Assembly: GCA_016840065.1 (NCBI GenBank)
Contig: JAEOTB010000091.1
Span: 54,233 to 118,232, forward strand
Source of the DNA: Candidatus Hermodarchaeota archaeon
Lineage (GTDB): Archaea; Asgardarchaeota; Hermodarchaeia; Hermodarchaeales; Hermodarchaeaceae
Direction: 5' to 3'
Length of the DNA: 64,000 nucleotides
Shown: in pieces, positions 14,001 to 47,425 of the stretch
How the letters are laid out: every line of letters begins with the position of its first letter
Position numbering within the stretch: the first letter of the stretch is position 1
Position numbers and translations under genes: made by a program
The notes under the pieces: model-generated
Databases searched by the model: none
What the model saw: only the letters and a program-made list of their open reading frames with translations
Told to the model about the DNA's origin: nothing

Positions 14001-14945
14001 TTAATCAGGCATCGCTTCCGGGTTTTTCTCCTTGAGAGTTCTGGCAAGAACAGAAGCCTGTTGCTCTGCTCGTGCAAGCATGTCAGGCATTGCCTCATCA
14101 GTCAAGAAACCAGTAGCAAATACTAAACTTCGTGCTTCTCGATTTGCCTGTTGGAGCAATAGTGGCAGAGTTTCAGGCGTTATATAGTTAATTGCTAGTG
14201 CTACAAATCTGCCTGCCTGAGCAGCTTCCTGAAACTGAGCAATGATATCGCTTGTGCTTATTTCAAATACAGCCGCTGAAAGAACTGAACCGCTGTCATA
14301 GGCAGCAGACAGTTTTAGATAAATTTCATAAGGCTCAAGGCCAAGCCGTGAGAGAACAAGTGCTTGAGCTCTTGACACTGTTTCGCCTGCTTCTACAACC
14401 ACATGATCCTCTGTGATCCAGATGGATCCACCTTGGACACGGGTTTTTAATCCAACCTGACCCAATTCCGAGATTAGAGGGCCAGGTGGGAAGCCAGTGT
14501 TTCCTGCGGTAATAATGATGTCTTTAGGTGAAACCGTACCAGCTTTAGCTGGAGCTTTTGCTTTGTTCTTATGCAGCATTTCATTGAGCTCGAATGGATT
14601 CGCTTTGGCAAAGGCAAATGCACAGGAGCCTTGAACAAACGGGATTAACTCAGTAAGGCCCTTTTTTGTGGTGGCTTGTTTAATTGCCCTTATCATCATC
14701 GAATTCTTTGCCATGAGAATGACGGCTTCTCCTCTGAGCGCTTTCTTAATCCTCTGAAGCTGTTTCGAGCCAATACTCTCTGTTCTGATTAGGCAAATGT
14801 ACTCGTATTGCTCAATGAGTGAGACTAGGCGATTAACCTCCTCTAGTTTCATTTGAGGAACTGGTCGCCCCTGTTGGGTTCTAGGAGTATCGCCAGTGGC
14901 TACTGGACTCGCACCTGCACTCATTTTCATCACCATAATTGTCAT
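14001..14945 (-). CDS. rpl10: Ribosomal protein uL10 (P0)
   Basis: QLQRIKKALRG, KAPAKAG, GNTGFPPGP; operon context. Confidence 0.95.
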   Translation of the reverse strand: MTIMVMKMSAGASPVATGDTPRTQQGRPVPQMKLEEVNRLVSLIEQYEYICLIRTESIGSKQLQRIKKALRGEAVILMAKNSMMIRAIKQATTKKGLTELIPFVQGSCAFAFAKANPFELNEMLHKNKAKAPAKAGTVSPKDIIITAGNTGFPPGPLISELGQVGLKTRVQGGSIWITEDHVVVEAGETVSRAQALVLSRLGLEPYEIYLKLSAAYDSGSVLSAAVFEISTSDIIAQFQEAAQAGRFVALAINYITPETLPLLLQQANREARSLVFATGFLTDEAMPDMLARAEQQASVLARTLKEKNPEAMPD

Positions 14946-15601
14946 ATTTTAATTTCTACAGTTGGACCCATCGTGGTTTTAACAAACACGTTGCGAATGT
15001 TGTTCATTCCTTTTTCGAGATTATGTTCTAGTGCTACTATAACTGCTTGTATGTTTTCTGCAACGAGTTTGGGGTCCATTGATAGTCTTCCAACTTTTAC
15101 TTGAATTACAAGATTCTTCCGCATCCGAAGCTTTACAGACGATGAGAACTCAGAAAGGAGTTTTCCGATATCAGTATCAGGAGTTACTGGACGCGGCATT
15201 TTCCCTCTTGGACCAAGAACAGGACCTAATATTCGACCCACTAGTGGCATCAAATCTGTTTGTGCAATGAAGAAGGCAATCTCCTCAGCTAGCGCTTTTG
15301 CTTCTTCTTTTTCTGAGCCAAGCCGCTCAATATCCTGGGCTTCAAGCACTTTATAGGCCCCTGCTTGACGCGCATTATAAGCTAAGTTACCTGAACCGAT
15401 AACACAAACTCTAGTACCCTCCTCAATGGCGTGAGGTAGAGGAGTATCGATGTTGATTTGTTTTCCTCTTTTCAAATCTATACCTTTGAGGTTGACAATG
15501 ACTTCTATAGACTCCTCAAATTTCCGTTTTTTAGCCTTAGCTTTAGCCTCTGTTACTGCATCGATTATCTTGTCAAGTTCCACCAAATCAGACGCCCCCA
15601 T
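14942..15601 (-). CDS. rpl1: Ribosomal protein uL1
   Basis: RKFEESIE, LGPVLGPRGKMP, KTTMGP. Confidence 0.96.
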   Translation of the reverse strand: MGASDLVELDKIIDAVTEAKAKAKKRKFEESIEVIVNLKGIDLKRGKQINIDTPLPHAIEEGTRVCVIGSGNLAYNARQAGAYKVLEAQDIERLGSEKEEAKALAEEIAFFIAQTDLMPLVGRILGPVLGPRGKMPRPVTPDTDIGKLLSEFSSSVKLRMRKNLVIQVKVGRLSMDPKLVAENIQAVIVALEHNLEKGMNNIRNVFVKTTMGPTVEIKI

Positions 15602-16747: not shown

Positions 16748-16951
16748 CTAAGATGTAGGTCCGAATGCGGGCATGGACGTTACCATCAGGAAGACCATCT
16801 TGATGATGTAGCCAACGAATCCGATAGCGAAGAGTCCAAGGAGACTGATTCGCAGTTGTAACCAAATCTCGGTCCGAGTGGGTCTTTTAGCAAGTCGAGC
16901 GATACGTTTGGTATTTTCCCAAAATGTTGAAGCGTCAACCATGTCGTTCAC
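16748..16951 (-). CDS. secE: Protein translocase subunit SecE/Sec61 gamma
   Basis: RIARLAKRPT..E, G...IGFVGYIIK; upstream of spt5. Confidence 0.88.
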   Translation of the reverse strand: MNDMVDASTFWENTKRIARLAKRPTRTEIWLQLRISLLGLFAIGFVGYIIKMVFLMVTSMPAFGPTS

Positions 16952-17033
16952 CTATAGCTAACTAGGGCTTTGGGATTTGTCACTACACGTGTTCTTAATA
17001 AGTCTTTTCGGCGTGACGAAGTTGAAGGGATGA

Positions 17034-17888
17034 TTATTCCATGAAGTCTTCAATAGGAGCGCGAAGTAAATCTCGTACTCGATGGGCTTTGATATTCAGT
17101 CCTTCTAGAATTTTCACTAATCGGCTTCGTTGTGACCCCTGAATCCCCTTCCAATCAAGTGCAGCCAAAGATACGCGACCATGTGTTCTCTCGATTGCTT
17201 GGCTGATTAGAGATTCAGAAATCAGGTCCAAATGATATTTCGGCATCAGATGGGATGGTGCAAATCCGGTTTCAATGCTTAGGCGGGTGAATGCGGGACA
17301 GTAATGCGGCCCTCCGAAGCCAAGAAATGCAGGAGCTGATTTCTGCAGATTTTCTGCCACCGCCATAATAGCACGGGCGACAGCTTTGGCTGCTGCTTCA
17401 TTTCGCCAATCATGTTCAGCACTACCTATTTCTACAAAAAGCGTTGGGATCTTCTCAATCCAAGGTCCGTGATGCGTCGCCTCAAGTCCGCAAGCCCACA
17501 TATCAAGCTTCAATCGGTTTCGTTCAGCGAGTAAGGTCTGGTGAGCTACCTTAACGGCAGAGGGATGGGCTACACATAATTTTGAAGGTTTGCCACCAAG
17601 CTCAGCAGCTGACCAATTGCCAGGAGTATGGACCAGTAAGGCTGGTTTGAAAGACGCGGATTTGTGACGTGACGCGAAGATGAAGATGTCAGCTGACAGA
17701 CGTTGGTCTAGTCGGTCTGCATAGATACTATCGGACTTGATAGTTACTATGGACAGATTGTTCAACTGATATATTGGTACACCATCATGAGTCTCCTCTT
17801 TCTCACTGAAAGGATACAGCGCAAGTAGTTGTTGTTTGATATTCTGAGCTGCGATATCTTGAACTGAGCAAAGACAGACGGCGGACAA
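17034..17888 (-). CDS. dtdA: D-aminoacyl-tRNA deacylase (archaeal DTD2 type)
   Basis: SRHKS, HTPGN, EATHHGP, FVEIGS, GFGGPHY. Confidence 0.92.
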   Translation of the reverse strand: MSAVCLCSVQDIAAQNIKQQLLALYPFSEKEETHDGVPIYQLNNLSIVTIKSDSIYADRLDQRLSADIFIFASRHKSASFKPALLVHTPGNWSAAELGGKPSKLCVAHPSAVKVAHQTLLAERNRLKLDMWACGLEATHHGPWIEKIPTLFVEIGSAEHDWRNEAAAKAVARAIMAVAENLQKSAPAFLGFGGPHYCPAFTRLSIETGFAPSHLMPKYHLDLISESLISQAIERTHGRVSLAALDWKGIQGSQRSRLVKILEGLNIKAHRVRDLLRAPIEDFME

Positions 17889-23715: not shown

Positions 23716-23819
23716 GCGGCCGTGGTCTAGTGGTATGATTTCGGCCTTCCACGCCGATGCCCCGGGTTCGAATGCAGGACAAGTTCTGTGTCAAGCCGAA
23801 GATCCCGGCGGCCGCACCA
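23716..23819 (+). tRNA. tRNA-Gly(UCC) with T-loop intron at 59/60 (23773-23802, 30 nt)
   Basis: GCGGCCG/CGGCCGC acceptor, TCGGC-CTTCCAC-GCCGA, TTCG/CGAA central helix with AAT and GAT bulges; TTTTAAG TATA upstream. Confidence 0.9.
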
Positions 23820-24743: not shown

Positions 24744-24853
24744 GCCGACGTAGCTTAGCCCGGGAGTAACCTTGACATTGATCAACGGTTTAGCCCGATA
24801 GCGCGGGACTGAAGATCCCGTTGTCGCTGGTTCAAGTCCGGCCGTCGGCACCA
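24744..24853 (+). tRNA. tRNA-Phe(GAA) with D-arm intron at about 22/23 (24767-24799, 33 nt)
   Basis: GCCGACG/CGTCGGC acceptor, CGGGA-CTGAAGA-TCCCG; removing the insert restores GCTTAGCCCGGGAGAGC D-arm; CGGG/CCCG helix. Confidence 0.87.
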
Positions 24854-46956: not shown

Positions 46957-47034
46957 CGCCTCGAAGCCTGATTTTACTACAGAGGAATAGTGAAATCGCT
47001 GTCAAAAAGGTAACTATTCTTTGGAATTATGGAG

Positions 47035-47230
47035 TGGTGCGGGGGGAGGGATGTTCGGAACCCACCAAGCGGGCTCTTTCGAACCCTCGAACCGCTTCCG
47101 GACAGGATTTCTCCTTGGGCAAGAGATCTTGAGTGTCACCATCGACCAGAAAACTGGGCGATTCCTGCGCCTTTAACCAGGCTTGGCTAAAGGGTCTAGC
47201 GAGCCAAAGTGACGCACTAGAAACCCCCGC
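47035..47230 (-). tRNA. tRNA-Leu(CAA) with four predicted introns (8/9: 47189-47222; 30/31: 47135-47163; 37/38: 47109-47127; 59/60: 47052-47077)
   Basis: Removing the four hairpin inserts gives GCGGGGGTAGCCAAGCCTGGTTAAAGGCGCAGGACTCAAGATCCTGTCCGGAAGCGGTTCGAGGGTTCGAATCCCTCCCCCCGCACCA, an 88-nt archaeal tRNA-Leu. Confidence 0.88.
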
Positions 47231-47425
47231 CGCCTTGTTCTTTGGCAGCAGACCCGTAAACGGGCCCCCGCACGGGGACGAATGAGAAAGAGAAATGTGT
47301 TGCTTAAAACTGCTTCGGGTAAGAAAAAAGGCTCATTGATTTGAGGAAGCGGCTGCGCCAACTAAACATCTTTATAGATGAAAGCTAAAATCACGAAACA
47401 TATCTTTTAAGCGGAGATGTACTAA

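Follow-up and report, generated by a model that had tools for sequence, protein, structure and literature searches.

Positions 47230 to 47035, read on the minus strand of the 64,000-nucleotide stretch of DNA analyzed here (the window), were proposed in an earlier note to encode a tRNA-Leu(CAA) interrupted by four introns, one of which lies between tRNA positions 8 and 9. The locus raises the question of whether this is a working tRNA gene with four real introns and, if so, how an intron at 8/9 could be removed. The source assembly is a metagenome-assembled genome (MAG) of 2.59 Mb in 131 contigs, with 46.9% G+C and a completeness of 84%. The note took three introns per gene as the upper limit known in archaea, which was the maximum stated in 2014 and 2021 (PMC4033280, PMC8450103); this premise is outdated, since Supp. 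Data 4 of Valentin-Alvarado et al., 2024 (PMC11291895) lists Asgard tRNA genes with as many as four introns and the text of an October 2026 preprint by Goswami et al. (10.64898/2026.10.13.758758) gives a maximum of five intervening sequences per gene. Novelty can be kept for only part of what the note described: four-intron genes are already catalogued (PMC11291895), while 8/9 is not in the intron-position list of PMC4090602, in which 30/31 and 59/60 are classical noncanonical sites, nor among the tRNAscan calls of one genome table in PMC11291895. [quoted passage not shown] The gene is therefore not a record for intron number but a member of an already reported class of crowded Asgard tRNA genes.

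Predicted removal of four inserts yields a class II tRNA-Leu(CAA)

The gene spans 196 nt and consists of five exons (8, 25, 7, 31, and 17 nt) and four inserts of 34, 29, 19, and 26 nt at sites 8/9, 30/31, 37/38, and 59/60; all coordinates of the gene and its flanks are on the minus strand. Exon 1 (47223..47230) comprises the 8 nt of tRNA positions 1–8, reads GCGGGGGT and is invariant in orthologs. It is followed by intron 1 (47189..47222), 34 nt at 8/9 with a strict hBHBh' motif, and by exon 2 (47164..47188), whose 25 nt cover positions 9–30, i.e., the D arm and the 5' strand of the anticodon stem as far as G30. Intron 2 (47135..47163; 29 nt at 30/31) has a relaxed BHB and a long h' hairpin, and separates exon 2 from the 7-nt exon 3 (47128..47134), ACTCAAG, which holds positions 31–37 with the anticodon CAA. 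Intron 3 (47109..47127; 19 nt) sits at the canonical 37/38 site. Exon 4 (47078..47108; 31 nt, positions 38–59) supplies the 3' strand of the anticodon stem, the long variable arm, the T stem, and TTCGAA; intron 4 (47052..47077; 26 nt at 59/60) again has a strict hBHBh' motif, and exon 5 (47035..47051; 17 nt, positions 60–76) ends the gene with the 3' strand of the T stem, the acceptor 3' strand CCCCCGC, A73, and an encoded CCA. The predicted exon junctions are GGGGGT/AGCCAA for exons 1 and 2, GCGCAGG/ACTCAAG for exons 2 and 3, ACTCAAG/ATCCTG for exons 3 and 4, and GGTTCGAA/TCCCTC for exons 4 and 5.

When the exons are joined, ARAGORN assigns the 88-nt product to tRNA-Leu(CAA) and folds it into a normal class II cloverleaf, in agreement with the insert sizes and the normal 88-nt tRNA-Leu that had been read from the sequence. 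The joined exons provide the acceptor stem GCGGGGG/CCCCCGC, U8, G18G19, U33, G37, the anticodon loop CUCAAGA, the T loop TTCGAAT, A73, and CCA, and the variable region has the class II form expected of tRNA-Leu, with 14 nt and a 3-bp stem. The folding of the precursor was compared with that of shuffled sequences and gave z = –4.9. In its unspliced form, the gene has no match to ARAGORN or to the Rfam tRNA model, either in the window or in the whole assembly; the expectation that standard annotation would overlook it is borne out for these two tools, which define the scope of that statement.

Strict and relaxed splicing motifs

The BHB rule applied here takes four H nucleotides followed by a 3-nt bulge that is cut after its second nucleotide, on both strands. 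For intron 1, H is formed by G3–G6 (GGGG) with CCCT, the bulges are GTT and TTA, h' is a helix of 7 bp (TCTAG.../...CTAGA), and h is made by G–1, G1, and C2 with G10–C12. From the window alone this intron could equally be written at 7/8; it is fixed at 8/9 by the BHB register, by orthologs in which the intron ends in C or A, and by an intron-free allele. Intron 4 has a strict BHB in which TTCG/CGAA is H and the T stem is h. The motif details given in the note for the 8/9 intron (GC/GC, GGGG/CCCT, GTT/TTA, TCTAG/CTAGA) and for the 59/60 intron (TTCG/CGAA) all hold, and both introns have a strict BHB in 16/16 orthologs.

The motifs of introns 2 and 3 are of the relaxed type. In intron 2, H is C25–A28 with GGTG, giving three of four pairs and an A28-G mismatch, and h is G23 and G24 with C32 and U33; the A28 mismatch was seen in 16/16 orthologs, and three pairs of its h' were changed on both sides. 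[quoted passage not shown] The geometry of archaeal BHB introns, with predicted cuts that restore a canonical tRNA, is found in its strict form at introns 1 and 4 and in its relaxed form at introns 2 and 3. The relaxed class with three of four H pairs easily arises by chance, as stated in the text of the preprint (10.64898/2026.10.13.758758), and the support for introns 2 and 3 therefore comes from conservation, not from the motif.

The two relaxed motifs share nucleotides, which confirms the overlap of pairings that had been noticed together with the two A-G mismatches. C32 and U33 belong to h of intron 2 and to part of H of intron 3, while C27 and A28 belong to part of H of intron 2 and to the anticodon stem, i.e., h of intron 3, which is itself interrupted by intron 2. 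Since the two BHBs use the same nucleotides, they are mutually exclusive and, judged from these overlapping pairings, introns 2 and 3 must be spliced sequentially; removal of intron 2 before intron 3 would be the simplest order. The BHBs of introns 1, 2, and 4 are mutually compatible.

Conservation of the four introns in two genera

Orthologous loci were recovered by pattern search in MAGs titled Hermodarchaeota or Promethearchaeota, i.e., Asgard archaea. The locus is present in 17/18 other genomes of the family (BLAST), which comprises two genera, and all four introns occupy identical sites in 17/18 distinct orthologous sequences from both genera, with the window counted among them. Across genera, the exons are 97–100% identical to the window, a value somewhat inflated by the exon-anchored regular expression used for recovery, which partly enforces an exon match, and the introns are 51–61% identical. 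In an alignment of 16 sequences, the specified BHB structure pairs in 94.8% of cells, compared with 33–51% when the partners are slid, and 8 pairs are changed on both sides, a number equalled in 0/500 shuffles. Compensatory changes among orthologs are seen in h' of intron 1, and the same helices were recovered de novo by RNAalifold. Because the orthologous exons are invariant while the introns diverge, the pattern of motifs is more than chance.

One ortholog provides the intron-free allele. In locus L010 (genome G011, of the second genus, g2), intron 1 is precisely missing at T8/A9, so that the sequence reads GCGGGGGT|AGCC. An outgroup Leu(CAA) gene, L082, has a single intron, at a different site. 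A pattern search of 400 Asgard genomes, with a pattern built on this gene's own exons, gave no match for an 8/9 intron outside this family; because the pattern fixes the exon sequence of this gene it also missed the Leu(TAA) copies of genus g2, and the search is uninformative on 8/9 introns of other tRNAs or lineages. Taken with the anatomy of the gene, the comparative evidence makes it very probable that the locus is a conserved, functional tRNA-Leu(CAA) gene with four real introns.

The orthologs also differ in a feature of intron 3. In 14/14 orthologs of genus g2 (L005–L018), this intron contains a complement of 9–12 nt to the gene's own D loop, UAACCAGGY with GCCUGGUUA. L006 (GGUCA/UGACC), L008, and L010 (the latter two GCAUGG/CCAUGC) show compensatory changes in this pairing, and the helix length is reached by at most 3/300 shuffles. 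The genus of the window is without this complement; instead, the 3' end of intron 1 and A9–C12 can pair over 9 bp with the D loop.

Leucine tRNA genes of the same genome

The note had asked for a check that no other Leu(CAA) gene exists, and none was found within this 84%-complete assembly. ARAGORN reports a 'Leu(caa)' with a 30-nt intron on contig C36 (5755–5861, minus strand), but this is really a 77-nt class I tRNA whose isotype was miscalled because the intron was placed wrongly; it has CAT-containing loops and is probably a tRNA-Met with a noncanonical intron. A tRNA candidate of 211 nt from an acceptor/T-arm scan (C10:+:101668) was discarded as spurious, being the reverse strand of other tRNA genes.

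The Leu(UAA) gene (C10:102045–102147, plus strand) carries one 16-nt mini-intron at the same 8/9 site and is without introns 2–4, and the Leu(UAG) gene on C102 has a T-loop intron only. The 5' half of Leu(UAA), in this gene and in loci L058–L069, is nearly identical to that of Leu(CAA), i.e., in the leader architecture, the type of intron 1, the D arm, and the anticodon arm except for C34/U34, and the variable and T arms differ. This distribution of sequence identity suggests that a 5' module was duplicated or converted between the two genes.

Conservation of a duplicated acceptor 5' strand in the leader

Upstream of the tRNA, a TATA-like box, TTTTAAGC (47302..47309), is preceded by the conserved sequence CGAAGCAG and would serve as the promoter. 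A second copy of the acceptor 5' strand follows 30 nt downstream of the box, and the mature 5' end 71 nt downstream; in ordinary tRNA genes of this window, the distance from such a box to the mature 5' end is 25–27 nt. A comparable box is conserved in orthologs and Leu(TAA) paralogs. The leader copy, GCGGGGG (47265..47271), is an exact duplicate of the acceptor strand and is here proposed as a stand-in for it. Two hairpins follow the leader copy. Hairpin A (GGCCCG-TTTA-CGGGTC, 47251..47266) has a covarying stem, with the variants CCCG/CGGG, CCCTT/AGGGG, CCT/AGG, and CCCTG/CAGGG in orthologs; hairpin B (GCTGCC...GGCGGC, 47229..47249) has a 3' strand that ends in G1 and C2 of the tRNA, and is paired in 97.9% of cells. 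On the downstream side, a T-run (47004..47008) within the conserved motif GTTACCTTTTTGAC is the probable transcription terminator. The motif in the form (C)GTTACCTTTTTGAC (about 47000–47015, minus strand), 20–30 nt past the CCA, is kept in all orthologs of both genera, and its conservation exceeds the needs of a simple T-run terminator.

The leader copy is invariant in 16/16 aligned Leu(CAA) orthologs, in which its flanks vary, and L008 has the copy too; it also occurs in 11/12 Leu(UAA) paralogs, drawn from both genera and all with the 8/9 intron. This genome yielded 35 tRNA candidates, of which one is spurious and two are the Leu genes with an 8/9 intron; an exact upstream copy is confined to these two Leu genes, and the 32 other candidates have neither an upstream acceptor copy nor an 8/9 intron. 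An apparent second 5' strand ahead of the Asp gene on C102 lies within a neighbouring tRNA and hence is no leader copy. In both Leu genes, an exact leader copy thus occurs together with an intron whose BHB uses the copied strand. As these two genes are paralogs, the leader copy counts as one evolutionary origin.

The ortholog that is without intron 1, L010, is also without the leader duplication and retains introns 2–4, which looks like a joint loss of intron 1 and leader copy. At this locus (G011:C12, minus strand, around position 1556) the tRNA 5' end lies 31 nt after the TATA box, which is the position of the leader copy in the others. Both intron 1 and the leader copy are retained in that genome's Leu(UAA) gene (L066).

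Pairing of the leader copy with the 3' acceptor strand was predicted by RNAalifold, and the invariance of the 7-mer places this pairing beyond covariation testing. The intron-1 BHB is incompatible with the acceptor stem because its H uses the acceptor 5' strand. In the folding model, forcing this BHB without the leader costs +8.2 kcal/mol on average; once the copy is allowed to pair with the 3' strand, the conformer with the intron-1 BHB gains an advantage of 3.8 kcal/mol, in 16/16 orthologs. With all introns removed, the copy pairing still exceeds the real acceptor stem in predicted stability by 5.6 kcal/mol, and strand exchange therefore needs something beyond the folding model. Based on these calculations, we tentatively suggest that the leader copy might be a dedicated cis-acting helper, which would pair with the orphaned 3' acceptor strand, hold a splicing-competent fold, and delay RNase P until intron 1 is out, before being displaced and cut off. 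As part of this helper reading, L010 would reflect a leader copy and an intron 1 that are gained or lost as one module. Such a leader copy of an acceptor strand is not mentioned in the sections of PMC11291895 and 10.64898/2026.10.13.758758 on which we draw.

Alternative readings of the locus and its leader

That the locus is a decaying tRNA pseudogene or remnant, in which the inserts are junk that is never removed, would account for the silence of the standard finders and for the two imperfect BHBs among the four, and the product of the Leu(UAA) gene at C10:102045 might, in principle, decode UUG by wobble in its place. Against this stand exons that have stayed invariant over two genera while the introns diverged, BHB helices preserved by compensatory changes, a conserved promoter, CCA and terminator, and the failure to find any other Leu(CAA) gene in this 84%-complete assembly; a pseudogene is extremely unlikely. 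Slightly less so, and still very improbable, is a gene with five intervening sequences, in which the sequence separating the two GCGGGGG copies would be a further intron and the true 5' exon would be the upstream copy. The upstream copy is placed relative to the TATA box as ordinary tRNA 5' ends are, the tRNA of L010 begins exactly at its position, and removal in any of eight registers yields the same mature sequence. However, 0/8 registers form a BHB, since a sequence would have to pair with its own copy to make H. In an unbiased scan, the conserved strict BHBs were those of introns 1 and 4, with no conserved BHB in the leader, and a fifth BHB intron there is excluded. To our knowledge, there is no other route of tRNA splicing in archaea by which such a stretch could be removed.

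The leader copy may also be a mere relic of the origin of the 5' module, by partial tandem duplication or by insertion with a duplicated target, with no role in splicing, so that RNase P just removes a long leader. We consider this a serious possibility, if somewhat short of probable. The leader resembles a degenerate unit of exon 1, hairpin, and GCC and has no BHB, the copy remains the more stable partner after in silico splicing, and all copies trace to one paralogous gene pair. A relic would not be expected to keep its 7-mer unchanged across two genera, in 16/16 genes for Leu(CAA) and 11/12 for Leu(TAA), when equally old introns have an identity of about 50%; hairpin A, moreover, covaries, the copy and intron 1 were lost together in L010, and the copy offsets the cost that arises from the mutual exclusion of the intron-1 BHB and the acceptor stem.

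Processing enzymes and a proposed order of events

A splicing endonuclease and an RtcB ligase are both present by gene content. Two EndA paralogs are encoded (contig C85, about 16767–17324; contig C10, about 100109–100714), each with the N- and C-terminal domains PF02778 and PF01974; one has the Tyr/His/Lys motif and the other, which is without the catalytic His, is presumably a structural beta subunit. The His-less paralog (C10:100109–100714, plus strand; L057 1192–1797) sits among densely clustered tRNA genes that contain introns, about 1.3 kb from Leu(UAA). [quoted passage not shown] RtcB was detected at 566 bits. A search of this MAG for RNase P RNA (RF00373) gave no match; the RNA occurs in 18/18 other family genomes, and we therefore read the gap as incompleteness of the MAG.

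With these components, the TATA-type promoter would give a precursor of about 250 nt from a predicted start. An EndA of the heterotetramer type would cut both bulges of each BHB, and RtcB would join the exons, with introns 2 and 3 removed in turn, most simply intron 2 first. For intron 1, the acceptor nucleotides G3–G6 would serve as the central helix, and one or two leader nucleotides would enter the outer helix. Since this BHB needs leader nucleotides as well as the acceptor 5' strand, intron 1 would be spliced before RNase P trims the leader. During this step, the GCGGGGG of the leader may be paired with the 3' acceptor strand left without its partner, and RNase P would then take off the leader.

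Other interrupted tRNA genes of the genome

Other tRNA genes of this genome are likewise interrupted. The tRNA-Gly(UCC) gene (window 23716–23819, plus strand) has a 30-nt intron at 59/60 (23773–23802) with the same TTCG/CGAA BHB as Leu intron 4; it was missed by ARAGORN and gave only a 25-bit partial match with Infernal. The tRNA-Phe(GAA) gene (window 24744–24853, plus strand) has a D-loop insertion of about 33 nt and was miscalled by ARAGORN as tRNA-Stop(tta) with a 12-nt intron. On contig C11 of the same genome (G000; 14752–14949, plus strand), a 198-nt gene with the acceptor GGGGTCA/TGACCCC and the anticodon loop CUCCAGA is probably a tRNA-Trp(CCA), with inserts that total about 120 nt and fall in its D loop, anticodon region, and T loop, i.e., at least three introns.

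Implications and comparison with known systems

The locus extends extreme fragmentation of tRNA genes in Asgard archaea to a Hermodarchaeota-type lineage. Standard finders can miss an isoacceptor, and tRNA inventories and estimates of codon capacity of such MAGs are therefore understated. The anatomy of the gene predicts an obligatory order for the two overlapping BHBs, splicing at 8/9 before 5' maturation, and a leader element that may temporarily partner the 3' acceptor strand. The newer element is the conserved leader copy tied to the 8/9 intron, which, from the folding model, may aid splicing. If the helper reading is true, an intron can persist where its splicing motif conflicts with the mature fold, which bears on why introns survive at some positions only.

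The closest relatives in kind are the multi-intron tRNA genes of Asgard archaea (PMC11291895; 10.64898/2026.10.13.758758). The host here is likewise an Asgard archaeon and the gene has at least two introns including noncanonical sites, in fact four introns of which three are noncanonical; shared features are the phylum, several short BHB introns, the mixture of canonical and noncanonical sites, and frequent omission by annotators, and the difference lies in the Hermodarchaeota-type lineage, which is named in neither paper's text as far as the sections drawn on here extend. In the complete genomes of Atabeyarchaeia and Freyarchaeia, 92–95% of tRNA genes are reported as interrupted; the accompanying table provides four intron columns, and one Lys gene with four tRNAscan calls was curated to three (PMC11291895).

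The multi-intron tRNAs of Thermoproteales (Sugahara 2008; Fujishima 2010; PMC4033280, PMC4090602) also have BHB introns at 30/31, 37/38, and 59/60 and an (alpha-beta)2 EndA with broad specificity, and their closely spaced introns are removed in order (PMC8450103); they belong to a different phylum, reach a maximum of three introns per gene, and have an acceptor-stem site at 3/4, not 8/9. Several BHB-dependent introns at noncanonical sites in one gene are known as well from Cyanidioschyzon merolae and from nucleomorphs (PMC3728597, PMC4090602), although these are eukaryotic nuclear genes, unrelated in sequence and lineage. The split tRNAs of Nanoarchaeum equitans and Caldivirga (PMC4033280) resemble the Leu gene in that flanking non-tRNA sequence pairs to hold the precursor for the BHB. 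In the split tRNAs, however, two transcripts are brought together by flanks that pair mutually, whereas in the Leu gene there is one transcript, and its leader duplicates its own 5' strand.
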